Below are positions 1,798-35,433 of a DNA stretch of 35,630 bases, in pieces. The stretch lies in assembly GCA_041599855.1 (NCBI GenBank), contig JBFILE010000002.1, forward strand, positions 1 through 35,630, in the 5' to 3' direction. The DNA comes from Thermoplasmatota archaeon (lineage in GTDB: Archaea; Thermoplasmatota; SW-10-69-26; JACQPN01; JAJPHT01). Position 1 is the stretch's first letter. Each line of letters starts with the position of its first letter. The notes beneath the pieces were generated by a model. That model saw nothing but the letters and a program-made list of their open reading frames with translations, did no database searches and was not told the DNA's origin. The position numbers and the translations under genes are program-made.

Positions 1798-1830
1798 GGA
1801 GGTGTCGGCCCCCGTTGTGCCTCGTGCTCA
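1798..1830 (-). promoter_or_regulatory. class-2 bipartite motif, copy a
   Basis: Coding strand TGAGCAC-N14-GCCGACACCTCC, then 3 nt, then ATG 1794. Confidence 0.55.
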
Positions 1831-1843
1831 CGAGAACGAAGAA

Positions 1844-1876
1844 GGCCCCCCCTCCCCGAGGTGGGGAGAGGGGGCC
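1844..1876 (-). terminator. intrinsic-terminator-like hairpin after gene 1889..2134
   Basis: GGCCCCCCCTCCCC / GGGGAGAGGGGGCC, 13 of 14 bp paired, 5-nt loop, followed on the coding strand by UUCUUCGUUCU. Confidence 0.6.
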
Positions 1877-2134: not shown

Positions 2135-2171
2135 GAGTGTAACCATACACGCTTGACGCTCAAGAGTCAAC
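2132..2171 (-). promoter_or_regulatory. class-1 promoter/operator cassette P1
   Basis: -35 TTGACT (2170..2165), 17-nt spacer, -10 TATGGT (2147..2142), 7 nt, ATG 2134. Two mismatches to the P2/P4 40-mer. Confidence 0.7.
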
Positions 2172-2387: not shown

Positions 2388-4882
2388 GACTTTCCCACGG
2401 GGCGGACATCGTGCTCAGGGTCGGGACCATCCGAGAGACCGGCGGCGGCCTCCTCTGCGGTCAGGAGGCGCATGCCGAGGAGAGCCCACTCAGGGCGGCC
2501 AGCGATGCGGACCTTGGCGCGGCCGTAGCCCTTCTCCTCCATGGATTCGTAGAACGCTCGGGGGCTCCAGATGTCGGACTCCTTCACGCCCTCCTCGATG
2601 AGGTGGCCCTTCCAGCGCTCAAAGACATCCTTCGCCCGGACTCGCCCGTTCTCCTCGGGGCGGACGTAGAGGTCCACGAAGCCGAGGAGGCCATCGGCGG
2701 CGTCCCGGTAGGCGGAGGTCGCCCGGCGGACCGACTCGGGCTCGTGGAGAGCGTCCAGGTCGTACCACTCCACGGCCCCGGCCACGGCCCAGGCCAGGAT
2801 GCCCTCGTACTCGGCCCGGAGGTCTCGGGTGAGGTGGTGGTCACGGTCCGCTTCGGCGAAGTACCGCTTGAACGGAATCATCTTGACGCGTCGCCAGAGG
2901 CCCTCGTCCTGGCCCTTGAAGCGGGGCTTGTGATTCGTGGCCAGGAGGATGAGGAAGGTGGGGCGGAACTCGAAGAACTCCTGGCGCATGAAGCGGGCCG
3001 AGATGAGGTCCTGTCCCGTGACGCGCTTGATAACGGACTCTGCCATGAGGCGGCCCTGTTCACCCTCGGAGGCGAAGACCAGGCGGGCCCCGTTGAGGGC
3101 GGCGAGGTCGTTCGGGATTCCGCCCGAGGGCTTCTGCTCGAAGGTCGAGAAGGGCGTGGTGGTCGAGATGGCTCGGAAGACCTCGGTGAGGGTGTCCGTG
3201 AGAACACTCTTCCCGTTCGCCCCCGTGCCCCAGAGGACGGCGAAGGCCTGCTCCGAGGTCTCGCCCGTGATGCCGTAGCCCACTAGGCGGCGCATGAAGG
3301 CGGGCATCTCGGCGTCCTCTGGGAAGATTTCCGTGAGGAAGCGCTCCCACCTCGGGCACGCTGCGGAGGGGTCATACCGCACGGGGATGCAGCGAGTGAG
3401 GAGGTCCTCTCTACGGTGCGGTCCGAGCTTGCCCGTGCGGAGGTCTACGGTGCCGTTCGCCACGCTCAAGAGGTGGTGGTGAGAGTCCATCCTCTCGTGG
3501 TCCTCGAAGACCATAGCCTCAAGTTCACGGAGCACGCCCCCGAGGAGGAGGGAGGACTCGAAGCGCTCGGCGGCCTTACGCTGCGCCTTCCACTCGGCCT
3601 CTTCGTCCTGGCTCAGGAAGCCGGAGACCTCGTGCTTAGCGAGCATGTCGGCGGCCTCTTCGTGTAGGGCCTCCACCATCCCTTGAGCGTTCCTGCGGGT
3701 GCGGTGGCCGGAGCGGTCATGCGTCCAGTGCGTCCCCTCCCAGAGGAAGAAGCCGAGGCCCTCGGCGTAGAGGACGCCCGGGCCCCCGTCAGAGAGGCGG
3801 TCCCGGAGGCGGCGGGCCATGGCCACCTCCGTGAAGCGGCCCCCCTCGGGGGAGTGCGAGGTGGCGGCGGCCGGGTGGCGTGCGGCCTCCACGGCCTCCA
3901 CGAAGGAAGTCCGGAAGCCTCGGGGGTCGGCCTCGTGCCAGGCGGTGACATCCCCCGCCCCATCGGGAGCGGTCCGCCATCCGAGCACGTAGACATCTAG
4001 CCCGGCCTCCTCGAAGACGGAGAGGAGGGTGGCGTTATAGGCGCGCCCGGCGTCGTCGTCGTCCCCGGCCAGGACCACGCGGCGGCCACGAAGGCCCTCA
4101 ATGAGTTCAGCCTGTAGGGCCTCGTTCCTCGTGACGGCGGCCCCACGGATGGCGAGAGCGTCGAAGCCTGCCGAGGAGACCGTGAGAGCGTCCCCAGGGC
4201 CCTCGGTGAGCACGACCGTATCGAGGCCGGTCTGGCGGTCCACGAAGGCGAACTTAGAGAACGTGCGGGCCCCGTCGTCGGGGTTACAGGGGGCGCTCCA
4301 GCGGACGATGTGGTCCCGGAGGGCACGGGCCTGGAGGCCGGTCGTGATGCCGTCGAAGTCGCGGAAGGCGACGGTAATCCGAGGGACCTGGAGGTAGGTC
4401 GATGCGAAGTCTAGCGGCCCGTCGTACCACGCGCCCCCAGGGTCAAAGCCCACGCCCAGAGCGGCGGCGTCCTCGGGGGCCAGGCCGAAGCGGTTACGGA
4501 CGTACTGGCGGGCCTCCTCGGCCACCTCGCCAGCGTCCTCCACGAGGCGGGTGGAGCATTGGAGGGTGTAGTAACGAAGGGCGGCGATGTCCTCGGGGGC
4601 GGGCCCGGGGCGGTCGGCCTGCGCCTTCGAGACGGGGAGCGAGGTGTCCGGGCGGTCGTCGGCCGAGAAGAGGTCCGAGGTAGTGAGGCCCATGGCCTTG
4701 ACCACGGTGGCCACGGTGCACCCTGAGCGACAGTGCACGAGGAGGCGGCCGTCCTTCGCGTCCTGGCCCACGAGGAGGCTCGGGGAATGATCGGCGTGGC
4801 CAGGGCACACGGCGACATAATCGCCCTTACCATCGGGGCCGTAGTAGTCATCGAGACGGGCGAGGAATGCGGAGAGCTTCAT
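2384..4882 (-). CDS. bifunctional DNA primase / D5-P4-type helicase (832 aa)
   Basis: N-terminal zinc-binding CPGHADHSPSL...HCRSGC. Toprim-like TEGPGDALTV and LAGDDDDAGRAY. C-terminal Walker A VLWGTGANGKSV, as in P4/D5-family primase-helicases. Confidence 0.9.
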   Translation of the reverse strand: MKLSAFLARLDDYYGPDGKGDYVAVCPGHADHSPSLLVGQDAKDGRLLVHCRSGCTVATVVKAMGLTTSDLFSADDRPDTSLPVSKAQADRPGPAPEDIAALRYYTLQCSTRLVEDAGEVAEEARQYVRNRFGLAPEDAAALGVGFDPGGAWYDGPLDFASTYLQVPRITVAFRDFDGITTGLQARALRDHIVRWSAPCNPDDGARTFSKFAFVDRQTGLDTVVLTEGPGDALTVSSAGFDALAIRGAAVTRNEALQAELIEGLRGRRVVLAGDDDDAGRAYNATLLSVFEEAGLDVYVLGWRTAPDGAGDVTAWHEADPRGFRTSFVEAVEAARHPAAATSHSPEGGRFTEVAMARRLRDRLSDGGPGVLYAEGLGFFLWEGTHWTHDRSGHRTRRNAQGMVEALHEEAADMLAKHEVSGFLSQDEEAEWKAQRKAAERFESSLLLGGVLRELEAMVFEDHERMDSHHHLLSVANGTVDLRTGKLGPHRREDLLTRCIPVRYDPSAACPRWERFLTEIFPEDAEMPAFMRRLVGYGITGETSEQAFAVLWGTGANGKSVLTDTLTEVFRAISTTTPFSTFEQKPSGGIPNDLAALNGARLVFASEGEQGRLMAESVIKRVTGQDLISARFMRQEFFEFRPTFLILLATNHKPRFKGQDEGLWRRVKMIPFKRYFAEADRDHHLTRDLRAEYEGILAWAVAGAVEWYDLDALHEPESVRRATSAYRDAADGLLGFVDLYVRPEENGRVRAKDVFERWKGHLIEEGVKESDIWSPRAFYESMEEKGYGRAKVRIAGRPEWALLGMRLLTAEEAAAGLSDGPDPEHDVRPVGKS

Positions 4883-5007
4883 GAGTTGCGGAGGGGGTCC
4901 TTCAGGATTTCGGCGAGGTGTTCGGCGGGCCCGATGTCGATGGCGTACCGCAGGCGGAGGACGGCCACGGCGAGGTGGAGGGCGAAGGCGAAGGCGAGGC
5001 GTCTCAC
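4879..5007 (-). CDS. hypothetical small membrane-like protein (42 aa)
   Basis: Below the track cutoff. GTG 5007..5005 overlaps the TGA of 5004..5477 (GTGA) and its TGA overlaps the primase ATG (ATGA). Hand translation VRRLAFAFALHLAVAVLRLRYAIDIGPAEHLAEILKDPLRNS, with a hydrophobic N-terminus. Confidence 0.35.
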   Translation of the reverse strand: MRRLAFAFALHLAVAVLRLRYAIDIGPAEHLAEILKDPLRNS

Positions 5008-5477
5008 GCTGCGGCGTTCCGGAGGCGGGTGGCGGCGGAGTGGCGGCGCTTATTGATCTTCGAGAGCGGCCAGCCGAGAAACTCGGCGGCCTGGCGGTGG
5101 GTCATCGGGTCGCCCTCGAATCCGTAGAGGAGGCGGAGCGTTACTCGCTCCTCGATGCTGAGGGAGGCGAGGAGGTCGCCCACGTCGGCGGCCAGCCGGT
5201 CCTCGGCCTCGATATCGGCCTCGGTGCGGTGGTCCTGCGTGAAGCTCTGGAGAGCGTCGTACCCGTTCGAGAAGTAATCGGTCACGATGGGGCGGCGCTT
5301 GTCCACCAAGGGGCCGCGCTGGCGGTTGTGGGGGTGGAGGGGGTCGTCCAGCGGAGAGACGGCCTGGCGGGCCTCTGCGGGGGAGAGGCCTTCGAGGCGG
5401 TGGAGGAAGTACCCCTGCCTTACGTCCTCGTTCGTAATGTCACGGGCCTCCTCGATGAGGGCGTTAGCGTCGATCAT
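5004..5477 (-). CDS. sigma-70 region-4-like HTH protein (possible phage sigma factor or -35-type DNA binder), 157 aa
   Basis: C-terminal LSIEERVTLRLLYGFEGDPMTHRQAAEFLGWPLSKINKRRHSAATRLR fits the sigma70 region 4.2 pattern. No clear region 2 seen by eye. ATG 5477 lies 3 nt after a class-2 motif copy. Confidence 0.7.
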   Translation of the reverse strand: MIDANALIEEARDITNEDVRQGYFLHRLEGLSPAEARQAVSPLDDPLHPHNRQRGPLVDKRRPIVTDYFSNGYDALQSFTQDHRTEADIEAEDRLAADVGDLLASLSIEERVTLRLLYGFEGDPMTHRQAAEFLGWPLSKINKRRHSAATRLRNAAA

Positions 5478-5480
5478 GAT

Positions 5481-5513
5481 GGAGGTGTCGGCCCCGAGGT
5501 CGAGCGGTGCCCA
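5481..5513 (-). promoter_or_regulatory. class-2 bipartite motif, copy b (upstream of the sigma-like gene)
   Basis: TGGGCAC-N14-GCCGACACCTCC, then 3 nt, then ATG 5477. Confidence 0.55.
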
Positions 5514-5521
5514 GACGCTAA

Positions 5522-5553
5522 GAAGCCCCCCACCTCGGAAGGCGGGGGGCTTC
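5522..5553 (-). terminator. hairpin after gene 5564..5830
   Basis: Perfect 10-bp stem GAAGCCCCCC / GGGGGGCTTC with a 12-nt loop. Confidence 0.55.
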
Positions 5554-5563
5554 GGGGGGAGGC

Positions 5564-5830
5564 TCAGAGGAGGACCGTGGTCCCGTTCCGCACGTCGAAG
5601 GCTACGTCCTGGTCGGCCACGATGCCGAGGAGGGCTTCGGCGGCCCGGAAGTCCATCCCGTGCTCCATGAGCATTGAGGCGGCCCGGTTGCCGGTGGCCG
5701 TGCGGAAGGCTCCGTCCCGGAACATTCCGAAGACGGCGAGGTCATGGCCGAAGTTCGAGGCGCTACCCGGGGCGAGGCGCTCCAGGCGGACGGCGAGAGT
5801 GTCGGTGCGGGTGGGGTGGGTCGTGTTCAT
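5564..5830 (-). CDS. hypothetical protein (88 aa), leaderless
   Basis: Track ORF 5564..5866 trimmed to ATG 5830 (MNTTHPTRT...), 7 nt downstream of the TATGGT of cassette P2. Confidence 0.65.
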   Translation of the reverse strand: MNTTHPTRTDTLAVRLERLAPGSASNFGHDLAVFGMFRDGAFRTATGNRAASMLMEHGMDFRAAEALLGIVADQDVAFDVRNGTTVLL

Positions 5831-5867
5831 AGGTGTAACCATACACGCTTGACGCTCAAGAGTCAAC
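5828..5867 (-). promoter_or_regulatory. class-1 promoter/operator cassette P2
   Basis: -35 TTGACT (5866..5861), -10 TATGGT (5843..5838), ATG 5830. The 40-mer is identical to P4. Confidence 0.7.
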
Positions 5868-5947
5868 GTCCCACGGGAGATTTCTTCGGCGGTACCGGCG
5901 GAGCGCTCGGAGGGTGACCTCGTGCCAGATGTAGCGGGCCTCGCGGA

Positions 5948-6313
5948 TCACGAGAAGGGGTCGAACTCGCACGCGCACGAGCGGCGGGCGGCCTCCATGA
6001 GGCGGCGGTGCTCCTCGATCGTGGTGACGGCGTAGCCCTCGCCAATCGGGCGGCCGTGCTTCTTCACGTAGACCACGGACCAAGGGAAGCCCGCCTGGTC
6101 GGCCTGGGCCCGGGCGTCCTTCACCCATCCGGCGAGGTCGAACTTCCGGACGGCCTTGGCCTGGATCACGAAGGGCCAGACGTGGAGGTCTCCCACGTCG
6201 AAGCGGCCCTCCTGGGCGGCGCGGCGAGCGTGGCCGAGGAGGGGGACCTCCCGGAGGTAGTCCCGGATGCGGGACTCCCACTCGGTGCCGATAGCCTTCG
6301 GTCGGTTGCTCAT
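5948..6313 (-). CDS. PD-(D/E)XK nuclease, Holliday-junction-resolvase-like (121 aa)
   Basis: Track ORF 5948..6367 trimmed to ATG 6313, which has a GGAGGAG SD 8 nt upstream. GTEWESRIRDYL...FDVGDL...VIQAKA resembles the Hjc/endonuclease D...(E/Q)xK signature. Confidence 0.7.
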   Translation of the reverse strand: MSNRPKAIGTEWESRIRDYLREVPLLGHARRAAQEGRFDVGDLHVWPFVIQAKAVRKFDLAGWVKDARAQADQAGFPWSVVYVKKHGRPIGEGYAVTTIEEHRRLMEAARRSCACEFDPFS

Positions 6314-6531
6314 ACGAGAAGCTCCTCCGAGAGGTAGCGGTAGTGAGTGCCGTGGCATATGCACCACTTAAGGGCGTAGATGGAACGAACAGAGCCCGCC
6401 CCCGTGCGGTGGGAGCGGGCTATCCGTTCGGGCGGTGCCGAGGTGGGGGAGGCCCGGAAAGTGTCGCCATCGTGCGGACCGAAGCGGTACGGGATGGGGA
6501 ACCTTCCGGGCTCTCCCGAGGGGGTGGTCAC
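6310..6531 (-). CDS. hypothetical protein (73 aa)
   Basis: Track ORF with a GTG start. Its TGA overlaps the ATG of 5948..6313 (ATGA). It starts 1 nt after the stop of 6533..6706. Coding quality is uncertain. Confidence 0.45.
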   Translation of the reverse strand: MTTPSGEPGRFPIPYRFGPHDGDTFRASPTSAPPERIARSHRTGAGSVRSIYALKWCICHGTHYRYLSEELLV

Positions 6532-6532
6532 G

Positions 6533-6706
6533 TCACTCGGTTGGCTTCGCTCGCACGATGCCGAGCCACAAGGCCAGGAGCCAGGACGCCCCCACGGCCT
6601 CGAAGAAGGAGACCGAGACGCCCAGGATGCCGAGGGCCACCATGAGGGCCCACGGGGCCACCACGAGGGACAGGACGATGAGGAAGATGACGAGAGCGGC
6701 GCTCAC
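6533..6706 (-). CDS. small membrane protein (57 aa, two predicted TM helices)
   Basis: Below the track cutoff. GTG 6706..6704 overlaps the TGA of 6703..7383 (GTGA). Hand translation VSAALVIFLIVLSLVVAPWALMVALGILGVSVSFFEAVGASWLLALWLGIVRAKPTE. Confidence 0.5.
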   Translation of the reverse strand: MSAALVIFLIVLSLVVAPWALMVALGILGVSVSFFEAVGASWLLALWLGIVRAKPTE

Positions 6707-7383
6707 GAATCGCCCCCGGGGAAGACATCGGACGGGGCCGGGCCCGTGACGGTGAGCACGGGCTTCGTGTAGCTGACCTCACGGCCCGCCTTCGTCGTGT
6801 AGTTGACAGGGACGAGAGTGAGCTTCCCGAGAGCGGGGCCGTCGATCTTGGCCAGCTTCTCCTCGGCCTCGCCGATCTCTGCGGCCATGGACCACGAGCC
6901 AGACATGAAGCGGAGCTTCCCGAGGTCGGGGAGGTCGGCGAGGCGGAAGTAGACCTGGATCGAGGGGTCGCACCCGGTCCCGGCCTTCGAGGCCTCCTTA
7001 CGCTCGGTGATCTTCTGCGGGCAGGCGCAAGCGCTCCCGTCCTTCTGCGTGACGCCATCGCACGAGCGGATCATGGCGTTACGGCCCCAGAGGACCATCC
7101 CGGACTTTACCGCGCTCGGGCCGTCCAGGATGACATCCACCTCGGTGGCGGAGGTGTAGACCTCCAGGACTTCTTCGGTCGGGGTGTCCCACTCGGCGGG
7201 CTCGCCCCCGAGGAGGTCGGCCACGGCCTTCGCCACGTCGGGGTCGCCCGTCGTGAAACGCCACTCGGTCAGAGCCATCGGGCGGCCCTGGACCAGAGCG
7301 CCAGAGCGGAAGCGGCCCACGAGGTCATCGAGGGGTTTACGGGGGGCGGCGTCGGGGTCAACGTCAAAGATCTTCAGGGCCAC
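6703..7383 (-). CDS. conserved phage protein; possible ssDNA-binding/annealing partner of the adjacent exonuclease (function inferred from position only)
   Basis: Track ORF. GTG start with AGGAGG 6 nt upstream. Cys cluster CDG...GSACACP...GCDP. Lies directly downstream of the exonuclease gene. Confidence 0.75.
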   Translation of the reverse strand: MALKIFDVDPDAAPRKPLDDLVGRFRSGALVQGRPMALTEWRFTTGDPDVAKAVADLLGGEPAEWDTPTEEVLEVYTSATEVDVILDGPSAVKSGMVLWGRNAMIRSCDGVTQKDGSACACPQKITERKEASKAGTGCDPSIQVYFRLADLPDLGKLRFMSGSWSMAAEIGEAEEKLAKIDGPALGKLTLVPVNYTTKAGREVSYTKPVLTVTGPAPSDVFPGGDS

Positions 7384-7430
7384 GTGGGCCTCCTCTTGGG
7401 GGTAGTGCTGCGGTGTGTAGGGATGGAGTT

Positions 7431-7454
7431 CCCCCCTCCTCAGCGGGAGGGGGG
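7431..7454 (-). other. 9-bp GC hairpin in the leader of gene 6703..7383
   Basis: CCCCCCTCC-TCAGCG-GGAGGGGGG, between class-2 copy e and the AGGAGG SD. Confidence 0.45.
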
Positions 7455-7461
7455 CCTCGGT

Positions 7462-7494
7462 GTAGGTGTCGGCCCGAGGTGGCCGCGGTGCTCA
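7462..7494 (-). promoter_or_regulatory. class-2 bipartite motif, copy e (not coupled to an ATG)
   Basis: TGAGCAC-N14-GCCGACACCTAC. The TGA is the stop of the exonuclease gene. It is followed by hairpin 7431..7454 and an SD-led GTG gene. Confidence 0.45.
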
Positions 7495-8322
7495 GAAGTC
7501 GAGCGGCTTACCGAGGACCTTCTTCGAGAGGTCCTGGTCCCACGTGCGGACGTGGAGGAGGTGGACGAAGATGTCGAAGACCTCGGGGCCCACGTAGATG
7601 GGATGGAGGGCCGACTCGTCGGGGCGGAGGTGGACCACGGCGGCCCCGTCGATGGCGGGGAGTTCCACGCGCTCGGCCTTCGGCTCGGCGACCTCGGTCA
7701 CGGAGTCGGCGGGCTCGGTCAAGCGGAGGATGTAGTCCGCGTTCTTGTAGGCCGCAAGCTGGAGAGCGACCTCGGCGTGCACGCCCGAGCGGGTGGTCTT
7801 CGTGTCCAGGAGGACCGTCTCCCCCTCGATCTTGGCGATAGCGTCGAAGCTCCCGGCGTACCCGAACTCGTCGTTCCAGACCGTCTCTTCCAGGAAGAGG
7901 AACTCGGGCTGATACGTGTCGAGGAAGCGGCGATAGCGCTCGATGTATGGCGCATAGTCCGGGTGGATGGGGCCGGGGTTCTCGCCCCGTGCGATGCACT
8001 CACAGAGGTCGTGGACCGCGGTGCCGTCGTCGGCGCTCTTGCCCGTGTCGCGCTGCGGGGCGTTCTTCATCCAGTCCACGGCCCCCTTCTTGCGGACCTC
8101 GTAGGCCCGGGGGTCGTCGTCGGCGGAGAGAAGCATCTGCACCAGGGCTCCGGCGTTGTCGGCGGCGAACTCTGCCACCACCTTCGCCCGCCAATACTGG
8201 AGGAAGGTCTTCGGGAGCATGTTGACCACGGAGGTGACTCCGATGGCCTTCTCCCCCGTGTCGGGGTGGACGTAGAGGCGTGCGCCTCCGCGGCGGATCG
8301 TGTTGACCTTGGGGGTGGTCAT
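7492..8322 (-). CDS. PD-(D/E)XK exonuclease (RecB/Cas4-like fold), 276 aa
   Basis: Track ORF 7492..8361 trimmed to ATG 8322, 1 nt after the upstream stop. SFDAIAKIEGETVLLDTKTT matches the D...(D/E)xK nuclease core. Confidence 0.8.
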   Translation of the reverse strand: MTTPKVNTIRRGGARLYVHPDTGEKAIGVTSVVNMLPKTFLQYWRAKVVAEFAADNAGALVQMLLSADDDPRAYEVRKKGAVDWMKNAPQRDTGKSADDGTAVHDLCECIARGENPGPIHPDYAPYIERYRRFLDTYQPEFLFLEETVWNDEFGYAGSFDAIAKIEGETVLLDTKTTRSGVHAEVALQLAAYKNADYILRLTEPADSVTEVAEPKAERVELPAIDGAAVVHLRPDESALHPIYVGPEVFDIFVHLLHVRTWDQDLSKKVLGKPLDF

Positions 8323-8323
8323 G

Positions 8324-8728
8324 TCAGAGCCACTCGCCCAGGTCGTCGGCGTCGTCGCCACTGAACGCCCCCACGTCGTCCAGGATCACGCCCTGGTCGA
8401 TCAACCACTCCACGAGGCGGGCGTAGGTCACGCCCTGCGGGGTCGTGCGGCCCGTGCCGTAGTAGCTCCCACCCGAGCGGATGAAGGCGTAGCGGAGGGT
8501 GATCGTCTCGCCCTCGTCGAACCCGAGCCCGGGCTGGCAGCGCTCGAAGGTGATGATGTCGCCATCGGTGCACGGGTCGTCGGTGCCGAAGTCTTCGAGG
8601 CTCTCCTCGATGCGGGCACGCTCGGCGGCGGCGGTCTGCTCAGCGCGGACCGAGGTGGCGGTGAGCGACGGGGGAAAGTGGGGGATATCCAGGTTGGCCC
8701 GGATGGTGATTTCGTTAAGTGATGCCAT
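8324..8728 (-). CDS. hypothetical protein (134 aa, acidic C-terminus)
   Basis: Track ORF. ATG 8728 lies 3 nt after a class-2 motif copy and has no SD. Confidence 0.75.
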   Translation of the reverse strand: MASLNEITIRANLDIPHFPPSLTATSVRAEQTAAAERARIEESLEDFGTDDPCTDGDIITFERCQPGLGFDEGETITLRYAFIRSGGSYYGTGRTTPQGVTYARLVEWLIDQGVILDDVGAFSGDDADDLGEWL

Positions 8729-8731
8729 GGG

Positions 8732-8764
8732 GGAGGTGTCGGCCCCCCACGGGCCCCGTGCTCA
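8732..8764 (-). promoter_or_regulatory. class-2 bipartite motif, copy c
   Basis: TGAGCAC-N14-GCCGACACCTCC, then 3 nt, then ATG 8728. The TGA is the stop of 8762..9328. Confidence 0.55.
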
Positions 8765-9328
8765 GGGCTTGAGTGCTTCGCGAAGCTCGCGCACGTCGGC
8801 GGCTAGCTCGCGCACTGCATCCACGGCGGCCTTACGCTCTGCGAGGCTCGACCCATGAGCCTGGACAGTCGCCAGGGCCACGGCCTCACGCGCCCTACGG
8901 ATGGCGGCGAGGAGGGAATCCGGCGGGCCCAGGCCGACCTCGCGGGCGCGGCTAATCAGGTTCGCCCGGGCGGCCTCGATACGCTCACGAGGGGAGACGA
9001 TGCGGAGCCCCGCGGCTTGAAGCTCCTCAGGCGTGAGGGTCTCGCGGAGGAGGTTCCCCACGTGGTAGCGGAGGCCGTTCTTCACGGCGGCCAGCGCGTC
9101 CTCGTCCACGCCTGAGGCCTCGTACACGGCGCTCATGACCTGGCGGTACTCCCAGGAGCGGCCAGCGGGGTCATCGTACCCCATCCGGAGGCGTACCACC
9201 TGGGCGGCCATCTCCCGGAGGATTTCCGAGGAGGGCTTAGCGGCGTAGGCCTGGATGAGGCGCGTTATCAGGTTCGCCACGTCGGCCATGGGCGGGAGGG
9301 TAGTCCCCCCGCCCATGCTCGGCGTCAT
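8762..9328 (-). CDS. hypothetical helical protein (188 aa)
   Basis: Track ORF 8762..9433 trimmed to ATG 9328, which overlaps the TGA of the upstream gene by 1 nt (TGATG). Confidence 0.7.
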   Translation of the reverse strand: MTPSMGGGTTLPPMADVANLITRLIQAYAAKPSSEILREMAAQVVRLRMGYDDPAGRSWEYRQVMSAVYEASGVDEDALAAVKNGLRYHVGNLLRETLTPEELQAAGLRIVSPRERIEAARANLISRAREVGLGPPDSLLAAIRRAREAVALATVQAHGSSLAERKAAVDAVRELAADVRELREALKP

Positions 9329-10092
9329 CACTGCTCTACCTTGAAATCGGAGGCGCACTCTGAGCACGTAATCCCGCCCGCTTCCAGGACAGCGGCCGAG
9401 GCCCGGATGATGCGGGGCTCCTCGCACGAGCACGTGGCCTTCAGGTTCGAGCGGGAGGCGGGCTTCTTCGGCGTCTTCGGGAGGTCGGGGTTCTCCCCGT
9501 TGCCCTTCGTGCCGCCCTTGCCGGTCACGAGGCCGAGGCGCTCGAAGGTATCGAGGTGGGCGTGAATGGCCTTATCCAGGGCCTCTATCACCTTGGCGTG
9601 CTTCTTGATCGTGTCCTCACGGAGGACGACGGCGGAGAAGCCGATCGAGACATCGGGGGACTGGCCCTCGGGCCACTCCATGCCAAGCTCCTCGGCCAGG
9701 GCCACGAACTTCTGATTATGGTAGCGGAAGCCCCTAGAGGTGTCCTGCACGCCCCGCACGACCGCGAGAGCGTGGACCGCTTCGTGGACCATGGTGGCGA
9801 AGGTGTCGGTCGCCCCGCACGCCAAGCGCTCGCCTGCGATGAAGATTTCCGGGAGGCGGCCAGCCTCATCGGTCACGGTGCCATCCTGGCGGAGGACCCA
9901 GCGGTCGGCCCCGTAGTGGCCCCACTTCGCCCCTCTGCCCATGAGGCCGGTCCCGGTGATGAAGAGGACCTCGGGGAGGTCGGGGTGGGCCTTGCGGAGG
10001 GAGGCGTAAGCCTTCTCCATGGCCTTGACGACGGTGGAGCCTGCCATACCTTCGAGGTTAGCGACCTTGCGGGGAGCGGTTGCGGTTGTCAT
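9328..10092 (-). CDS. SprT-like zinc metalloprotease-domain protein (254 aa), leaderless
   Basis: Track ORF 9328..10197 trimmed to ATG 10092, 7 nt downstream of the TATGGT of cassette P3. HEAVHAL (HExxH) motif and a C-terminal CSC...CSEC zinc ribbon. Confidence 0.8.
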   Translation of the reverse strand: MTTATAPRKVANLEGMAGSTVVKAMEKAYASLRKAHPDLPEVLFITGTGLMGRGAKWGHYGADRWVLRQDGTVTDEAGRLPEIFIAGERLACGATDTFATMVHEAVHALAVVRGVQDTSRGFRYHNQKFVALAEELGMEWPEGQSPDVSIGFSAVVLREDTIKKHAKVIEALDKAIHAHLDTFERLGLVTGKGGTKGNGENPDLPKTPKKPASRSNLKATCSCEEPRIIRASAAVLEAGGITCSECASDFKVEQ

Positions 10093-10129
10093 AGGTGTAA
10101 CCATACACACTTGACGCTTGAGTGTCAAC
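10090..10129 (-). promoter_or_regulatory. class-1 promoter/operator cassette P3
   Basis: -35 TTGACA (10128..10123), -10 TATGGT (10105..10100), ATG 10092. The central hexamer of the dyad is inverted relative to the other copies. Confidence 0.7.
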
Positions 10130-10140
10130 CTGAGAACGCA

Positions 10141-10172
10141 AGAATCCCCCCAGATTTCTCCGGGGGGATTCT
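10141..10172 (-). terminator. hairpin closing the late/lysis unit, immediately upstream of P3
   Basis: Perfect 11-bp stem AGAATCCCCCC / GGGGGGATTCT. The loop contains AGATTTCT. Confidence 0.65.
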
Positions 10173-10222
10173 TCGGCCCTAGGTTCGCTCGGAGCAAATC
10201 CGAGTCTCAGCGGGCGGGGGGT

Positions 10223-10381
10223 TCAGTTGTCAGGGTAGTGGTCGCTGGCGCACCACGGGGCGGTGACCACGGCGGAAGGGAGGACGCCCTTAGCGATACG
10301 GTAGCGGCCCTCGGCGTCCTGCGGCGTGCCCTTCGGAGGGCGGGCTCCCTTGTGCGTACAGTAGACCGGGCGGAGGGTCAC
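10223..10381 (-). CDS. hypothetical small protein (52 aa)
   Basis: Below the track cutoff. GTG 10381..10379 overlaps the TGA of 10378..10614 (GTGA). Hand translation VTLRPVYCTHKGARPPKGTPQDAEGRYRIAKGVLPSAVVTAPWCASDHYPDN. Confidence 0.4.
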   Translation of the reverse strand: MTLRPVYCTHKGARPPKGTPQDAEGRYRIAKGVLPSAVVTAPWCASDHYPDN

Positions 10382-10614
10382 TCGCCCGCCTGCGGGAGGA
10401 AGGGGAGGCTCCCGAGTTCGCGTCGGTCGATGAAGACCTGGCGAGTGGGGGTGACCTTCGAGCGGACCACCTCGCCCGTACCGAAGATGGCGGCGACCAG
10501 GGCCAGGATCAGGACGACCGGGAGGCCCGGGACGTAGAAGGCCACGAGGGCCAGCGCTGCGGCGATGATGGCCTGGATACGGACCGGGTTATTCCGGATG
10601 CTCTCGAAGCTCAT
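10378..10614 (-). CDS. small membrane protein (78 aa)
   Basis: Track ORF. ATGA overlap with the stop of 10611..11204. Two hydrophobic helices (IIAAALALVAFYVPGLPVVLILALVAAIF). Confidence 0.7.
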   Translation of the reverse strand: MSFESIRNNPVRIQAIIAAALALVAFYVPGLPVVLILALVAAIFGTGEVVRSKVTPTRQVFIDRRELGSLPFLPQAGE

Positions 10615-11204
10615 GGGGGGGTGGTGCCTTTCAGGAGATGGCGGACGATATCGGTGGCGGGTGCTCGGAGGTCCTCAATGGTGCCGAAGTTCTCCACGAG
10701 AATGTCAGGGGTGAAGTTGTTAAGAGCGGTCTCGGAGACGTGAGCGGTCACGGGGTCTACGTCCCGGACCACCTTGACGAGAGCGCTTACGCGGACGTGG
10801 CGGACGGCGTGCACCTCGTTCGGGAAGCGAACGTCGGTGAAGACCACGGGCCCCTCGATCTGGGAGGCCCGCTCCACGGCCAGGCGGACCCAGAAGTCCG
10901 GGCTCATGGCCCGCACGGCGTCGGTGCCGATTCGCTGGAGTAGGCGGCGGATATCGGGGTAGTTCCGCTTCGCCCACTCCCATCCCTGCTCCCTCACGAT
11001 GTTCGAGAGGCGGGCGGTCGTGGTGGCGTCGTGGATATAGGGGTCAATGGCGAGGGCCATCTCCCGCACGTTGTCGGCGAAGGCCACGCGGGTGAAGCCG
11101 AAGCTCTCCACGAGGATGGCGGCGAGGGTGTCCTTCCCGGCCCCGGCGGGCCCGTACAGGCCTACCCATGGGGGGAGGTGGTAGTTAGATGGTGGGGCTG
11201 ACAT
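10611..11204 (-). CDS. deoxynucleoside monophosphate kinase-like P-loop protein (197 aa)
   Basis: GLYGPAGAGKDTLAAIL Walker A followed by FAD, typical of phage dNMP kinases. ATG 11204 lies 3 nt after a class-2 motif copy. Confidence 0.8.
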   Translation of the reverse strand: MSAPPSNYHLPPWVGLYGPAGAGKDTLAAILVESFGFTRVAFADNVREMALAIDPYIHDATTTARLSNIVREQGWEWAKRNYPDIRRLLQRIGTDAVRAMSPDFWVRLAVERASQIEGPVVFTDVRFPNEVHAVRHVRVSALVKVVRDVDPVTAHVSETALNNFTPDILVENFGTIEDLRAPATDIVRHLLKGTTPP

Positions 11205-11207
11205 GAG

Positions 11208-11240
11208 GGGGGTGTCGGCCCCACCATCTAGACGTGCTCA
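11208..11240 (-). promoter_or_regulatory. class-2 bipartite motif, copy d
   Basis: TGAGCAC-N14-GCCGACACCCCC, then 3 nt, then ATG 11204. The TGA is the stop of 11238..11471. Confidence 0.55.
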
Positions 11241-11471
11241 GGGGAGAGGGCCGTGGAGGCGGAAGTAGGCGGAGTTCTCGGCCTCTAGGTGTTCTACGCG
11301 GCGCTCCAGGGAGTCGATACGTACCTGAAGTTGGGTGAGCAGGAGGGTCGAAGCGGTGAGCATCTGAGAGCTAGACTCCGGGCCCCGCCTGCGGCGATTC
11401 CACAGGGTCGTAGCGCCCGCCATACCAGCGGTGAGGACGGCGGCCAGGAGGGTAGCTAGAGCTATGGTCAT
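11238..11471 (-). CDS. lysis-cassette membrane protein (77 aa; N-terminal TM plus coiled coil)
   Basis: Track ORF. ATGA overlap with the holin-like gene. TM helix, then RRRR, then a heptad-like LQVRIDSLERRVEHLEAEN. Confidence 0.65.
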   Translation of the reverse strand: MTIALATLLAAVLTAGMAGATTLWNRRRRGPESSSQMLTASTLLLTQLQVRIDSLERRVEHLEAENSAYFRLHGPLP

Positions 11472-11788
11472 GGGAGGGCCTTCTCAACATGTCGGAGGCG
11501 GTAGGCGAGCGTCGCCCATCCGCCCACGGTGACCGCTGCGGAGATGTTCAAGGCCTCCAGGAAGAAGAGGCCCACGAGAGGGACCACGAGGCCAGAGGCC
11601 AGGGTGAGCATCCCGGCGGCGAACATGAGCGACCATCCAGCGATGAGGAGGAGGTGCGGCCCGTAGATGCCCCCCGCCTGGCGGGCCATGGCGGCGGCCC
11701 GGACGGCGGAGAAGACGCACGTGGCGGCGAGGACGTAGCGGCTTACGGCGACGGTAGCCACTGCTGCGAGGATGACGGTGGCAATCAT
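11468..11788 (-). CDS. holin-like multi-TM protein (106 aa)
   Basis: Track ORF. Three to four hydrophobic helices. Immediately downstream of the endolysin with an ATGA overlap. Confidence 0.7.
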   Translation of the reverse strand: MIATVILAAVATVAVSRYVLAATCVFSAVRAAAMARQAGGIYGPHLLLIAGWSLMFAAGMLTLASGLVVPLVGLFFLEALNISAAVTVGGWATLAYRLRHVEKALP

Positions 11789-12837
11789 GGCCTACTCACC
11801 TCGAAACCGTCGCCCACGTCGATGAGCTTGGCCCAGACCTGAGCGTCCACGACGGAGCCATTAGCGGGGAGCCCCACGCACTTCTGCCACTCTGACAGGG
11901 ACCAGGCGGTAGCCGGTCCGAAGACCCCATCCACGGCGAGGCCGGGCTGGCATCGTTGGATGACGCGCTGAGCGTAGGTGACATACCGCCCGCGCGAGGC
12001 GACGCGGAGGACGGGGTAGGCGGGCTTAGCGGTGACCAGGGCGGCCTCCACCTGGCCGAGCTTCGCCCACGTCCGCGGGCCCACTACGGCGTCAATCGTG
12101 AGACCGTGGCGGGCCTGGAAGTCGCGCACCACGGCGGCCGTGGCCGGGCCGAAGCGACCGTCCACCACGATGCCCGGGTGCTGCACCTTGCGGAGGACGC
12201 TCTGGAGATGCTGGACCGCCTCGCCCTTCGCTCCCTCGCGGAGCGTGGGGAGGTCGGCCTCGGTGGCGGGCGGAACGGCCACGCCCCCGTGGCGCTCGAA
12301 GTCGATCACGGCGGCGGGGATGCGGTCACCCCGCACGTAGCGGATATGCCAAGGCTCCGATTGCACCTCCCAGGAGAAGCCGAAGCGCCAGGCGTTCTCC
12401 TTGAGCCAGGGGATGGCGGGGGCGATGTTCACGGCGTCGTTGGGGTCGAGCCCATCCGAGGGGTCACGGTCCAGGGCGAGGTCGATAGCGAGGCCCCACC
12501 CATGGTTCGAGGTCCCGGGCACGGCGGCCATGGCCCCGGTGTGATTCCAGTAACGAACGCCATTCCAAACCTTCGAGTGGCGGTCCGTGGGCGTGGTCGA
12601 GTACCGGCGGAGGAAGAGGGCCTTCTGATTCTCGTATGAGCGATACGTCCCGCCCCACGTGTAGGTCAGATGGAAGCCCTGGGCGCGCGCTGCGGCCCGG
12701 AGTGCCTCGAAGGAGCGGGCGGCGTTATGGTGGAGGAGGCCGCCCATTCCGACCGAACGCATGAGGCCCGAGGGGAGTTGCCCGTTCGTGGTGCCTGTGA
12801 GCGAAGCGGGCTGGACGACGGTGACGATGGGGAACAT
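11785..12837 (-). CDS. endolysin: VanY/M15-type D-Ala-D-Ala carboxypeptidase domain plus two PG_binding_1 repeats (350 aa)
   Basis: SNHGWGLAIDL and EPWHIRY zinc-peptidase motifs. Two repeats of the type VDGRFGPATAAVVRDFQARHGL / VDGVFGPATAWSLSEWQKCVGL. Confidence 0.9.
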   Translation of the reverse strand: MFPIVTVVQPASLTGTTNGQLPSGLMRSVGMGGLLHHNAARSFEALRAAARAQGFHLTYTWGGTYRSYENQKALFLRRYSTTPTDRHSKVWNGVRYWNHTGAMAAVPGTSNHGWGLAIDLALDRDPSDGLDPNDAVNIAPAIPWLKENAWRFGFSWEVQSEPWHIRYVRGDRIPAAVIDFERHGGVAVPPATEADLPTLREGAKGEAVQHLQSVLRKVQHPGIVVDGRFGPATAAVVRDFQARHGLTIDAVVGPRTWAKLGQVEAALVTAKPAYPVLRVASRGRYVTYAQRVIQRCQPGLAVDGVFGPATAWSLSEWQKCVGLPANGSVVDAQVWAKLIDVGDGFEVSRP

Positions 12838-15270: not shown

Positions 15271-16382
15271 TAGAGGGCCTTCCAAGTGTGCTGCATCATG
15301 CCTCGGCCATCTAGCGGGAGCGTCCAGGACTGAGAGAGCACCTTCCGGCGGGGGCCTAGCGAGGGGTCGGTGTAATCGAGCACGTCAAAGTGCCAGTGAA
15401 GGGGGTTAGCGAAGGTCTCGACCGCGAAGGACGTGGCCCACCTACTCTCCCGCTCCACGATGATGTCCCCGCTTCGCTGGAGACTGTCCTCGCATCCGCA
15501 CGTCTCCAGGAAGTGGACGCTAGAACGGACGAGGCCGCCCCGAGCATCGATCGAGGTGGGGCCGTTACCCTGATTCGTGACTACATAGGTCTCCGTGTCG
15601 TCCGGGACGGTCCCCGCTGCGCCTCGGACGAAGACCCAGCGGTTAGGGGTGCTGAAGAGGTCGGAGGTGGCCGTACGAAGCTGGCCCAGGATGGACTGAG
15701 CGGCGGTTGAAGAGTACGCCCACTCTGCGGCGCTAGTACTCGGCGAGGTGTAGGGGCCCGAGCGGTAGGCCCCGGTCCAGTCGGCCCAGAGTCCACGGTG
15801 CCCGATACGGCCGAGAAGATCGTTAACGATCTGGAGCCACGTCGTACCAGCGTCGAGCGGAATCACCACGTCCTGAGCCAGGGTGTGGTCAGTCGGCTCG
15901 ATATATACGGGGACGGTGGGGGCCTCGGCGGCCAGGATGGTCCCCACCTCCGCCACCACGTTCGTCCCGGCGGCGGCGCGGTAGGTCTGCCCCGCTGCCG
16001 TGTTCAAGATGGTGAGGCGGTCCTCTCCGCGCACGGAGAAGATCGGGCGCTCGGCGACCACCTCGGGCTCAGAGAGGCGGTACACGCCCAGATGGAAGCG
16101 GGCGGTCCCTGCATCGCTCTGGAGTTCCATGTACGGGCGCACCTCGGCGATGCCCCACGAGAGCGGGAGGGCTAGCTCCAGAGCACAGGACCCATGGATG
16201 ACGGCGTAGTTACTGCGTGCCACGGAGCCCCCGAGGAGGTAATCCGAGAGGTCTTCCTCCACGGCCCCGGTGGATGAGAGGCGCTCCAGGCCTGACCGCA
16301 CGGTGACGGCCTCGGCGGCGATGATGGAGCGTACCGTAGCGGCCGAGAGGCCGGAGCGGGGCGGGGCGGTGGTGGGCTGCAT
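15270..16382 (-). CDS. minor tail protein (tail tip/baseplate-hub-like, 370 aa)
   Basis: Track ORF. Its position two genes downstream of the tape measure is typical of Tal-type proteins. Confidence 0.75.
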   Translation of the reverse strand: MQPTTAPPRSGLSAATVRSIIAAEAVTVRSGLERLSSTGAVEEDLSDYLLGGSVARSNYAVIHGSCALELALPLSWGIAEVRPYMELQSDAGTARFHLGVYRLSEPEVVAERPIFSVRGEDRLTILNTAAGQTYRAAAGTNVVAEVGTILAAEAPTVPVYIEPTDHTLAQDVVIPLDAGTTWLQIVNDLLGRIGHRGLWADWTGAYRSGPYTSPSTSAAEWAYSSTAAQSILGQLRTATSDLFSTPNRWVFVRGAAGTVPDDTETYVVTNQGNGPTSIDARGGLVRSSVHFLETCGCEDSLQRSGDIIVERESRWATSFAVETFANPLHWHFDVLDYTDPSLGPRRKVLSQSWTLPLDGRGMMQHTWKAL

Positions 16383-16383
16383 T

Positions 16384-16761
16384 CTAGACCTCTTCGGAGT
16401 AGGTGACCTCGCGAAACTCGAAGCTGACGCTCAGAGAGTCGGGCCAGACCTCGGTGATGGAGATGGACAGGACCACGCCCCACGCTGCTCGGCCCCGGGG
16501 GTCCCGGTATAGGAGCGTGCGGCCCTCCTCGATCCACCCGAGGAGGGTCGCCACGGTAGAGCGGTCAACCTGATCGAGGGCGACAGAGAGCACGCGGTCC
16601 CGGCCCTCCGTGAGAATCGCCCGGCGGCGGCCGTTCGCCCCCACGTACACGGCCCCCAGCTTGTCCACCCTCGCCGAGGCGGCGTCCAAGTCGAACGTGA
16701 TGAAGGTAGCGGGGTCGGATGCTAGGTGGATGTATAGGAAGTCCAGGGTGGTACTAGCCAT
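16384..16761 (-). CDS. distal tail protein candidate (125 aa)
   Basis: Track ORF. ATG 16761 overlaps the end of the tape-measure gene by 8 nt. Confidence 0.7.
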   Translation of the reverse strand: MASTTLDFLYIHLASDPATFITFDLDAASARVDKLGAVYVGANGRRRAILTEGRDRVLSVALDQVDRSTVATLLGWIEEGRTLLYRDPRGRAAWGVVLSISITEVWPDSLSVSFEFREVTYSEEV

Positions 16762-20223: not shown

Positions 20224-20261
20224 CCTCCGGCCACTAGCACAGAGGGGGGGAGGCTGTCAAG
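20224..20261. repeat. imperfect direct repeat B flanking the tail-operon gap
   Basis: CCTCCGG..CTAGCACAG..GGGGG..TGTCAAG. Its partner is at 19950..19989. Confidence 0.6.
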
Positions 20262-20270
20262 TCACTCCCC

Positions 20271-21230
20271 TCAGAGTGCCACGTCATCCGTGGTGATCGT
20301 GATGGCCACGGCGGGGTTTGTGCCGTCGTGCAGGATGCGGAAGGGCATGGTCTGCACGGTCAGGTCCGTGAGCGAAGCGGCCGGGCTGTCCCCGTCGTAC
20401 TGGCACGCCTGAGCGAGCACGTCCACGGAGTAGTTACCTCCGCCGAAGCTGGCCCCTGTCCAGGTCGCTTGCACGGGGAAGATGTCCCCGGCCACGAAGC
20501 GGTCGTACTCGGTCACGTCGGAGAAGTCCGAGGTGAGCGAGCCCGAGTACGTCGGGACCGCTGCCCGGCGGGGTGCCTTCTTCAGGCTGGAGCCACGGAG
20601 GTGGCGGCGGTCGGTCTTCAGTCCGAGGTCGCCCGCGAACTCGATGGCGCGCACGTTGTCCACGGACGATCCACCAAGCTGGACCGCTGCCTGCGTCCAG
20701 TCGAAGGGGACCGCACCGGCGGGGTACGTCGGCGTACCGGCGGCCACGTTGGTCACCTCGTCCTGAGCGTCGAACGTGAGGCCGACCTTCAGGAGGTCGT
20801 CCATAGCTTGAGCGATGGTCCACGATGTCATGACCGCGCCCAGGTATGTGAAGGGCACCAGTGTCCCGGCGTCGGTCGGGCGGAGGACCTGCACGGTGAA
20901 GCTCTTGGGGGTGATGTCCGAGGCCGTGGTCAAGGTGATGACGTTGACGGTAGGGCCCGCCACGCTCCCGAGCATGGACTGGAGTAGAAGCCCCATCCCG
21001 TTTGTCAGGAAGTCCAGGTCTGAGAGTTCGCCCTCTGCGCCCAGCGTGATCTGCTTGCGGCGGTCGCTGCGGACGGTCTGCATACCGGCGCGCATCCCAC
21101 CAGACTCCAGCGGCTCGGTCACACGCTTCCACGTGTCGGCCTTGGCCTCGTAGCCACGGGTCAGAGCGGCGGCGGTGCCGTAGGTGGTCTCCTCACCGAA
21201 GAGGACGGCGGCGTCGAGAATGGAACTCAT
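20271..21230 (-). CDS. major tail (tube) protein candidate (319 aa)
   Basis: Track ORF. Size, Thr/Ser/Gly-rich beta-type composition and position after the head-tail joining genes fit. No specific motif recognised. Confidence 0.65.
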   Translation of the reverse strand: MSSILDAAVLFGEETTYGTAAALTRGYEAKADTWKRVTEPLESGGMRAGMQTVRSDRRKQITLGAEGELSDLDFLTNGMGLLLQSMLGSVAGPTVNVITLTTASDITPKSFTVQVLRPTDAGTLVPFTYLGAVMTSWTIAQAMDDLLKVGLTFDAQDEVTNVAAGTPTYPAGAVPFDWTQAAVQLGGSSVDNVRAIEFAGDLGLKTDRRHLRGSSLKKAPRRAAVPTYSGSLTSDFSDVTEYDRFVAGDIFPVQATWTGASFGGGNYSVDVLAQACQYDGDSPAASLTDLTVQTMPFRILHDGTNPAVAITITTDDVAL

Positions 21231-32950: not shown

Positions 32951-33147
32951 GGTGGTGGCCCTCCAGGGCAGAGGCGTGAGGGCTTGACCCTGGAGGGGCC
33001 GAGAGCGGTGGGGGAGAGGGGCCCAGCGTGCGGTCCTGCATGGGGGCAACCTGCCAGAGGGAGGGCACTCTCCCCCCTTGTATAGTGTGGGCCCCCCGTG
33101 CTCACGGGACCAGGGGCGGGGGGTTCTCACGGCGAGAAGAGTGGCGG

Positions 33148-34901: not shown

Positions 34902-35054
34902 GTGCATCTGGTAGCTACGCCGGTGCATATTCGTACCGAGCCGTGCCCCGTAGTGCATCTGGTAGCTACGCCGGTGCATATTCGTACCGAGCCGTGCCCC
35001 GTAGTGCATCTGGTAGCTACGCCGGTGCGTGTTCGTACCGAGCCGTGCCGCTGG
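34902..35054. repeat. 3 x 51-bp direct tandem repeat upstream of int
   Basis: Units start at 34902, 34953 and 35004. Units 1 and 2 are identical and unit 3 diverges at its end. Each carries two GTGCAT hexamers 21 bp apart and the palindrome GTAGCTAC. Confidence 0.9.
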
Positions 35055-35067: not shown

Positions 35068-35117
35068 GTGTGCCTTTCCGTTAAGCGCGAGGGGGCGTGC
35101 TTGACGGAAAGGGACAC
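35068..35117. repeat. 50-bp imperfect palindrome (19-bp arms, 17/19 complementary)
   Basis: GTGTGCCTTTCCGTTAAGC - 12 nt - GCTTGACGGAAAGGGACAC. The left arm plus part of the loop is duplicated at 34861..34890. Confidence 0.85.
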
Positions 35118-35122
35118 TCCCC

Positions 35123-35422: not shown

Positions 35423-35433
35423 GGAGACTCCCC

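Follow-up and report, generated by a model that had tools for sequence, protein, structure and literature searches.

A repeated two-block element in a siphophage-like genome

The 35,630-nt stretch of DNA analysed here (contig JBFILE010000002.1, positions 1 to 35,630; hereafter the window) covers most of a temperate siphophage-like genome with 67% G+C. Its subject is a 33-bp two-block element that occurs five times in front of genes and is very probably a promoter, most likely one served by a sigma factor of the phage itself. Nearly all genes lie on the - strand, where the gene order starts with a serine integrase, an HNH gene, the small terminase, structural genes and an endolysin, and ends with a deoxynucleoside monophosphate (dNMP) kinase, an exonuclease, a Gp3-like protein (resembling a recombination directionality factor, RDF), a 157-aa protein with a sigma region 4 (sigma-4) domain, a primase/helicase and DNA polymerase I. 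This order matches that of Streptomyces phage phiC31 and of the cluster AZ Arthrobacter phages. The DNA polymerase I gene (1-1442, -) is cut by the window end at position 1, and its first 480 codons encode 480 aa that are 62% identical to the polymerase of the metagenomic relative L022. Judging from relatives, about 10 kb of the genome, the region that carries a sigma gene in those phages, is located beyond this end. The window sequence was seen in one Logan assembly only, that of run SRR29257381, and a nucleotide search of the phage collection with positions 4000-12000 gave no match.

On the coding (-) strand the element reads TG(A/G)GCAC-N14-GCCGACACC(T/C)(C/A)C, and a GG(G) ahead of GCCGAC is likewise conserved among the copies. 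The + strand pattern GGRGGTGTCGGC-N14-GTGCYCA matches the window five times with at most one mismatch, compared with 0.01 matches expected from dinucleotide shuffles, none of which reached five. A sequence-only reading of this DNA had reported five such copies with fixed spacing, and both their positions and their number were confirmed. All five share one orientation, that of the gene strand, and every copy sits at a gene boundary (Table 1). Relaxed searches with either half of the motif revealed no extra bipartite copy in the window. A TGAGCAC at 33098-33104 was considered as a sixth copy and rejected, because a GCCCAC block starts 5 nt rather than 14 nt downstream and the site lies within a hairpin.

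The position of the copies relative to start codons is equally regular. An ATG follows exactly 3 nt past the motif in four of the five copies, with no purine-rich Shine-Dalgarno sequence (SD) between motif and ATG in any of these four, in agreement with the sequence-only reading. Copy 3 is followed by a 78-nt stretch that contains a hairpin and AGAGGAGG and leads to a GTG start. As also described previously, the TGA of the motif doubles as the stop codon of the upstream open reading frame (ORF) in three copies (3, 4 and 5). The remaining two, copies 1 and 2, are placed after terminator-like hairpins, of which the one upstream of copy 2 has a weak U tract and was read from the sequence rather than listed by the terminator scan. 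When the A of the ATG is taken as +1, GACACC occupies -12 to -7 and GAGCAC -35 to -30, with a 17-nt spacer in all five copies, so the promoter-like arithmetic proposed from the sequence was correct. The blocks are asymmetric and the motif has no dyad symmetry. The expected features of a promoter for a sigma70-family holoenzyme, i.e. two blocks near -35 and -10, a fixed spacer, asymmetry and co-orientation with the downstream gene, are thus all found in the motif.

The leader of the RDF-like gene downstream of copy 3 has a feature of its own. Its hairpin is strong (CCCCCCTCC-cgctga-GGAGGGGGG), and the orthologous leader in L022 (about 2215-2250) also has a G+C-rich hairpin. For the excision-factor gene this hairpin may act as an attenuator or as a stability element.

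The layout in relatives and the predicted start of transcription

Relatives were collected through primase homologues, which led to the metagenomic contigs L022, L023 and L024 (62-73% identity) and the more distant L025-L027. Searches for related loci that started from the small sigma-like protein or from the exonuclease confirmed no relatives. The comparison also took in Arthrobacter phages MissSwiss, Berrie, Yang and Elezi, Curtobacterium phage Moss and Microbacterium phage Jovita. The sequence-only reading had suggested looking for the motif in relatives, and the same two-block layout was found there at syntenic sites, i.e. before the dNMP kinase, exonuclease, RDF, small sigma-like/primase and polymerase units (Table 1). 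All of these sites are on the gene strand, and shuffles predicted at most 0.03 per genome. At the corresponding places, L025 and L026 carry bipartite motifs of another kind. An exact-pattern scan of IMG/VR (2.9 million viral contigs) returned 18 loci with one match each, none repeated and none with TCC-N3-ATG, which we treated as chance matches.

The relatives retain the upstream half, TGAGCA, and the spacing to the start codon. Within any one genome the downstream half is uniform, and between genomes it differs. Three phages isolated on a single strain, A. globiformis B-2979 (Berrie, Yang and Elezi), carry three different downstream blocks at syntenic sites, which argues for a reader that is encoded by the phages rather than by their shared host.

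We then lined up 30 sites of six genomes by their downstream block and defined the predicted +1 as the position 15 nt after the G aligned to the first base of GCCGAC. The predicted +1 was a purine in 30/30 sites, the -1 position was a pyrimidine in 28/30, and in 17 sites the A of an ATG fell exactly on the predicted +1. The other 13 sites are leadered and therefore free of any start-codon constraint, and here +1 was G in 12 and A in one. For both the dNMP kinase and the small sigma-like protein, the N-terminus agrees with that of the orthologues. Together, strand, position, geometry and the base preference at the predicted start make it very probable that the motif is a promoter, and the geometry places its start such that most copies in the window would give leaderless mRNAs.

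A second repeated element occurs four times on the - strand, nearly identical over ~39 nt (Table 1). It reads TTGACT-cttgagcgtcaagcgtg-TATGGT-tacacct-ATG, with an N17 spacer and the ATG after 7 nt, and by its sequence is a canonical housekeeping-type promoter that would be leaderless too. Its spacer contains an inverted repeat, TTGAC...GTCAA, that may be an operator. Two of the units behind this element consist of a single small gene followed by a terminator and then by a copy of the two-block motif. The host-type class is also present in L023 and L024. With its ATG 7 nt past TATGGT in all four copies, this class serves as an internal control, indicating that the phage does couple start codons to promoter-defined +1 positions.

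Table 1. Features of the window, with corresponding motifs and genes of relatives (window coordinates unless a relative is named; SD, Shine-Dalgarno sequence)
Feature	Coordinates	Strand	Description
Copy 1	1798..1830	-	Predicted +1 = A of ATG 1794; would drive 63-aa and 55-aa ORFs and DNA polymerase I (1-1442)
Copy 2 (flagged copy)	5481..5513	-	TGGGCAC -35-like box 5507-5513; -10-region block GCCGACACCTCC 5481-5492; predicted +1 = A of ATG 5477; would drive sigma-4-like gene, 42-aa ORF and primase/helicase
Copy 3	7462..7494	-	Block ends ...CCTAC; TGA = stop codon of exonuclease gene; sole leadered copy; predicted +1 = G 7458; 75-nt leader with hairpin 7431-7454, SD and GTG 7383; Gp3-like (RDF-like) gene
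Copy 4	8732..8764	-	TGA = stop of ORF 8762-9433; predicted +1 = A of ATG 8728; would drive 134-aa ORF and exonuclease (7492-8361)
Copy 5	11208..11240	-	Block ends ...CCCCC; TGA = stop of ORF 11238-11471; predicted +1 = A of ATG 11204; would drive dNMP kinase gene (10611-11204) and two small ORFs
Sigma-4-like protein gene	5004..5477	-	157 aa; follows copy 2; orthologue follows motif in L022, L023, L024
Terminator-like hairpin	1844..1876	-	14 pairs, T-rich tail; directly upstream of copy 1; transcription-unit boundary
G+C-rich hairpin	5525..5550	-	GCCCCCCGCC-ttccga-GGTGGGGGGC then TTCTT; directly upstream of copy 2
Host-type element, four copies	35364-35392, 10100-10128, 5838-5866, 2142-2170	-	TTGACT-N17-TATGGT
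Motif in L022			TGAGCAC-N14-GCGTGTAT; 4 copies
Motif in L023			TGAGCAC-N15-GGTGTATC; 6 copies
Motif in L024			TGAGCA.-N14/15-AAGAAGT; 3 copies
Motif in MissSwiss			TGAGCAG-N14-GCCCTCTCC; 5 copies
Motif in Moss			TGAGCA.-N13/14-GCCGACTCC; 7 copies
Motif in Berrie			TGAGCAA-N14-GCCGACTCC; 6 copies
Motif in Yang			TGAGCAA-N14-GCAACCTTC; 7 copies
Motif in Elezi			TGAGTAG-N13-GGGGCACCCTACA; 6 copies
Cluster AZ/Curtobacterium 'DNA binding protein' (full-length sigma homologue)	L020 18219-19028 (MissSwiss gp45); L031, L032, L033 about 15930-16770; L029 15920-16738

Candidate readers of the element

The explanation that we prefer, with a probability of roughly 0.6, is that the five copies form a phage-specific promoter class read by a phage sigma encoded beyond the window. 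RNA polymerase carrying this sigma would bind TGAGCAC (about -35 to -30) through region 4 and the GGG-GCCGACACC block (about -18 to -7) through regions 2/3, and would start transcription 15 nt downstream of the G of GCCGAC. At four copies the first nucleotide would be the A of the ATG, giving a leaderless mRNA for which no SD is needed, and at copy 3 it would be the G that opens a 75-nt leader containing an SD. The class would drive the replication, recombination and nucleotide-metabolism genes, i.e. those for the dNMP kinase, exonuclease, RDF-like protein, primase/helicase, DNA polymerase and small sigma-4-like protein. The four host-type promoters would serve other, presumably earlier, units. 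By comparison with relatives, a promoter of the host type would also serve the phage sigma gene, whose product would then direct RNA polymerase to the five sites to make the replication and recombination mRNAs. Because an SD is missing from the ORFs behind copies 1, 2, 4 and 5, read-through RNA should translate them poorly, and initiation at the motif would therefore gate their expression. In this scheme we infer where transcription starts, which sigma takes part and to which temporal class the genes belong.

The most likely reader is a full-length sigma of the phiC31 gp12/cluster AZ gp43 family. Members were found in L022, L023, L025, L027, MissSwiss, Moss, Berrie, Yang, Elezi and phiC31, and in every relative examined whose sequence reaches that region the gene is found a few kb downstream of that for DNA polymerase and encodes 230-270 aa (396 aa for phiC31 gp12). 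The family profile aligns over its full length to SigA, FliA, SigB and RpoS (E 5e-22 to 1e-18), and the L023, L027 and phiC31 gp12 proteins pass the cut-off of the sigma-70 superfamily model TIGR02937. Consistent with a host-type promoter for this gene, TTGCGC-N17-TAGGGT is found upstream of it in L022 and TTGCGT-N17-TATCCT in Moss, the latter overlapping an inverted repeat that resembles the repeated inverted repeats of phiC31. The region 4.2 helix, [ST]R..[VA]QR.R, is common to the TGAGCA phages, and phages that have another upstream box have a different helix. Among structured segments, the region 2.3/2.4 equivalent is the least conserved (pairwise identity 0.11-0.34, compared with 0.73 for region 4.2). 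These patterns are suggestive of a sigma in which region 4 recognises the conserved box and region 2 changes together with the variable block.

Several points weigh against this explanation. The start sites are deduced from geometry, both in this phage and in the relatives examined, and compared with the -11 A of housekeeping promoters the invariant A at -9 is 2-3 nt nearer the start. Three copies directly follow a stop codon with no terminator, so that read-through transcription also crosses them. The link between region 4.2 and TGAGCA is confounded by phylogeny, and Elezi has a MissSwiss-like region 4.2 helix yet its box is TGAGTAG, not TGAGCAG. Finally, the window lacks the proposed sigma gene, whose syntenic region is beyond position 1, and a search of the protein collection with the L022 sigma as query gave four matches, none from this phage. 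The existence of the sigma in this phage thus rests on synteny with relatives.

The sequence-only reading had suggested a different sigma, possibly the 5004-5477 product, which as a minimal sigma would read the promoters and activate its own gene through copy 2. Its call of a phage-specific promoter class is supported, given the strand and position specificity, the conserved geometry, the purine at +1 and the phage-specific downstream half; the choice of this protein as the cognate sigma is improbable. In favour of that choice, the gene lies directly behind a motif copy in the window, L022, L023 and L024, all four TGAGCA genomes that carry it. The protein has the size of an extracytoplasmic function (ECF) sigma, and its C-terminus is, as proposed, a sigma-4 domain, by Pfam Sigma70_r4 (25.9 bits, cut-off 24.1) and by hhalign to the sigma-4 of full-length phage sigmas (97.6% probability). 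The AlphaFold2 (AF2) model consists of a 40-aa head of three short helices, a low-confidence (disordered) linker of ~45 residues and a four-helix C-terminal domain with a predicted local distance difference test (pLDDT) score of 89-98. The best Foldseek matches of this model were sigma factors, including ECF sigma L and sigma H, with a close fit of the sigma-4 part only. A word-indexed homologue search found only the protein itself, and an exhaustive HMMER search gave 16 distant relatives, i.e. a family of 17 sequences in 1.8 billion representatives that shares an N-terminal DEDxxQEY..LRLEG helix, RGP and S.T.D.RT in the linker, and sigma-4.

What this protein does not have is sigma-2. No Sigma70_r2 match was found, TIGR02937 scored 20.5 bits against a cut-off of 42.9 and over profile positions 85-164 only, i.e. 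the sigma-4 part, and just 60 sigma-4 columns align to full-length phage sigmas, the N-terminal 85 residues not aligning to the sigma profiles. Without sigma-2 there is no known way of binding the beta' coiled-coil and melting the -10 region. The distribution of the family argues in the same direction: it is present in the window, L022, L023, L024 and L026, and is absent from three relatives that bear the motif or a repeat, MissSwiss and Moss (with TGAGCA-type motifs) and phiC31. The DNA-reading helix of this protein differs among phages with TGAGCAC in common, and L026 has a homologue together with a different motif. Since the gene is directly behind a motif copy in all four such genomes, we take it as a target of the promoter class; its product is probably a conserved regulon member and not the reader, and possibly a second-tier regulator. 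The L026 family member weakly matches a 'positive control sigma-like factor' model (34 bits, cut-off 136 bits).

A bolder, unlikely extension would combine both proteins in a two-tier system: a full-length sigma with a frozen -35 box and spacing and a co-diversifying -10 block and region 2.4, plus the 5004-5477 family as a half sigma that serves as an RNA polymerase accessory. If true, these phages would hold a naturally occurring set of sigma/promoter pairs that are orthogonal to each other, including pairs from phages that share a host strain. The sigma-2-less half sigma would be a new polymerase accessory, for example one that occupies the beta-flap to redirect or silence promoter classes, or a late-gene switch, and obligatory leaderless translation would tie gene expression strictly to initiation at the motif.

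Could an alternative sigma of the host read the promoters instead? A bipartite, asymmetric layout fits any sigma70-family holoenzyme, and no full-length phage sigma gene is visible in the window. Promoters of the sigma28/FliA/WhiG type have the form TAAA-N15-GCCGATAA, and the GCCGA of the motif resembles their -10 element. That resemblance is all that is shared, the upstream box being TGAGCAC rather than TAAA, and we rejected a sigma28-type promoter while keeping the GCCGA likeness as a lead. The phage sigmas themselves match FliA/WhiG models weakly (at most 43 bits, cut-off 189.6), and sigma models do not discriminate between families. The three downstream halves found on a single host strain, the sigma gene carried by every relative examined whose sequence reaches that region and the single, chance-like matches in IMG/VR all speak against a host reader, which we consider quite improbable.

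Still less probable is a site for a non-sigma transcription factor of the phage (activator, repressor or anti-terminator), with the true promoter signals weak or elsewhere. Homogeneity within and divergence between genomes would be expected for any phage-encoded DNA-binding protein, and a small two-domain protein such as the 5004-5477 product, with its N-terminal mini-domain, long linker and sigma-4 helix-turn-helix, could in principle contact two half-sites. The asymmetric blocks nevertheless occupy the canonical places of -35 and -10 elements, their spacing from the start codon is exact to the nucleotide, and the pyrimidine/purine at -1/+1 persists even at leadered sites, which points to start selection by RNA polymerase; the 33-nt intergenic spaces contain no other promoter-like element.

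An RNA-level element acting on read-through transcripts (in translation coupling, processing or ribosome loading) is very hard to credit: polycistronic RNA must include the motif where it holds the upstream stop codon, and CACCTCC equals part of the 16S rRNA 3' end, but no consensus secondary structure emerged from 13 copies of three genomes, no Rfam family was matched, copies 1 and 2 follow terminator-like hairpins, and the motif is kept in copy 3, all MissSwiss copies and most Moss copies, far from a start codon. The anti-SD identity of CACCTCC that the sequence-only reading had pointed out is real and not a functional requirement, because its CCTCC part is not conserved in the closest relatives, L022 and L023 (ATCACCACC, ATCTGGGGC).

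Three further repeats of the window stand apart from this question. A 51-bp unit forms three tandem copies (two identical, one 88%) at 34902-35054, ~50 nt ahead of where the serine integrase gene (33428-34852) starts. The ORF at 27937-29604 (-, 555 aa), which has no Pfam match, contains seven to nine degenerate 60-nt (20-aa) repeats at 28225-28977. A short repeated boundary sequence, TGAGGGGAGT(C/G)(T/A)C, lies on the - strand at three stop codons (TGA = stop), at about 35421-35436, 35110-35125 and 20258-20273. No tRNA was found in the window.

Comparison with known promoter systems

Promoters of ECF (group 4) sigmas follow an AAC-N16/17-CGT layout, to which the sequence-only reading had likened the motif. 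Both are bipartite with a G+C-rich spacer of similar length, and the neighbouring gene encodes an ECF-sized protein with sigma-4. The likeness did not hold, since the motif has GCAC and CGAC in place of AAC and CGT. CGT appears in the L022 version only, the adjacent protein is without sigma-2, and the candidate cognate sigma family aligns full-length to group 1-3 sigmas, and an ECF promoter was rejected on these grounds. The start-associated sequences (SAS) of cluster K mycobacteriophages contain a ribosome-binding site and are thought to act in translation. Like the motif, they are short conserved repeats directly upstream of the start codons of non-structural genes; unlike them, the motif has no SD, is bipartite at -35/-10 distances and is kept in front of a long leader.

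A closer counterpart is found in phiC31, where a 21-mer, CCGGGTTGCCGACTCCCTTAC, is repeated before gp52, gp2, gp3, gp9a, gp11, gp12, gp13 and gp25. The core GCCGAC[AT]CC is common to the window, Moss and the 21-mer. The repeats precede orthologues of the genes served here, i.e. the dNMP kinase gp52, gp2/gp3 (RDF), the primase gp9a and the polymerase gp11, and the genomes agree in their order, with a serine integrase and with the sigma-like gp12 just downstream of the polymerase gene. In contrast to the window, the phiC31 block is a contiguous 21 bp, of which only GG..GCCGAC.CC is common and not the full CCGGGTTGCCGACTCCCTTAC consensus. No TGAGCA box lies 14 nt upstream of it, all TGAGCA sites of phiC31 being intragenic or unrelated. 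The phiC31 genes have leaders with SDs and no ATG at the predicted +1, and gp12 has 396 aa with a divergent, expanded C-terminal half. On balance the window motif looks homologous to the phiC31 repeats. Ingham and colleagues reportedly described 'novel early promoters' of phiC31, activated in lytic growth (Molecular Microbiology, 1993), and we take the 21-mer repeats to be these promoters.

The cluster AZ Arthrobacter phages and Moss resemble the window in the upstream box, the 13-14 nt gap, the orientation and the syntenic positions, and Moss and Berrie share an almost identical downstream block, GCCGACTCCTC. They differ from the window in that most copies are leadered (the ATG lies at the predicted +1 in 2/7 Moss copies), in having no small sigma-4-like gene and in a primase that is ~46% identical to that of the window. 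In these phages the family of Lizalica gp43, a 'DNA binding protein', is conserved, and its sigma-like fold has been noted and discussed in terms of a candidate (immunity) repressor or an RNA polymerase-binding protein (10.1101/2025.05.26.655371). Neither that preprint (10.1101/2025.05.26.655371) nor an earlier AZ paper mentions promoters. Because TGAGCA-type motifs repeat before the replication genes of the same phages, our comparison suggests that the cluster AZ/Curtobacterium 'DNA binding protein' is the sigma for these promoters. This would call for reannotation of the conserved 'DNA binding protein' of clusters AZ, EB and EH as a sigma, as opposed to a candidate immunity repressor (10.1101/2025.05.26.655371).

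The analysis offers a predicted transcription map for a so far uncultured temperate actinophage, with four host-type and five phage-type promoters at start codons, and places the intergenic repeat of phiC31 in a broader family that has members in Arthrobacter, Curtobacterium and metagenomic phages. Phages of a single host keep the -35 box and differ in their -10 blocks, so this family is a possible source of compact, mutually orthogonal pairs of sigma and promoter (33 bp, without a 5' untranslated region) for high-G+C Gram-positive bacteria.

Phage sigma cascades and leaderless mRNAs in Actinobacteria are already well known, and no principles are changed here. SPO1 has phage sigma factors, gp28 and gp33/34, with promoter classes of their own. 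A comparable arrangement exists in phiEco32 (gp36) and Salmonella phage 7-11 (gp47, GTAAtg-N16-aCTA), which have a host-sigma early class and a phage-sigma class; the two are related to each other, and their sigma-dependent promoters lie at similar genome positions with dissimilar consensus (PMC8948821). These two differ from the window as phages unrelated to it, with other hosts and another consensus, their classes serve middle or late genes and are experimentally proven, and no leaderless coupling is reported for them. By analogy, the motif of the window would work like the phage-sigma promoter classes of SPO1, phiEco32 and 7-11, and what is new is that the TGAGCA box is conserved, that the spacing to a leaderless start is frozen and that phages of a single host each have their own -10 block.

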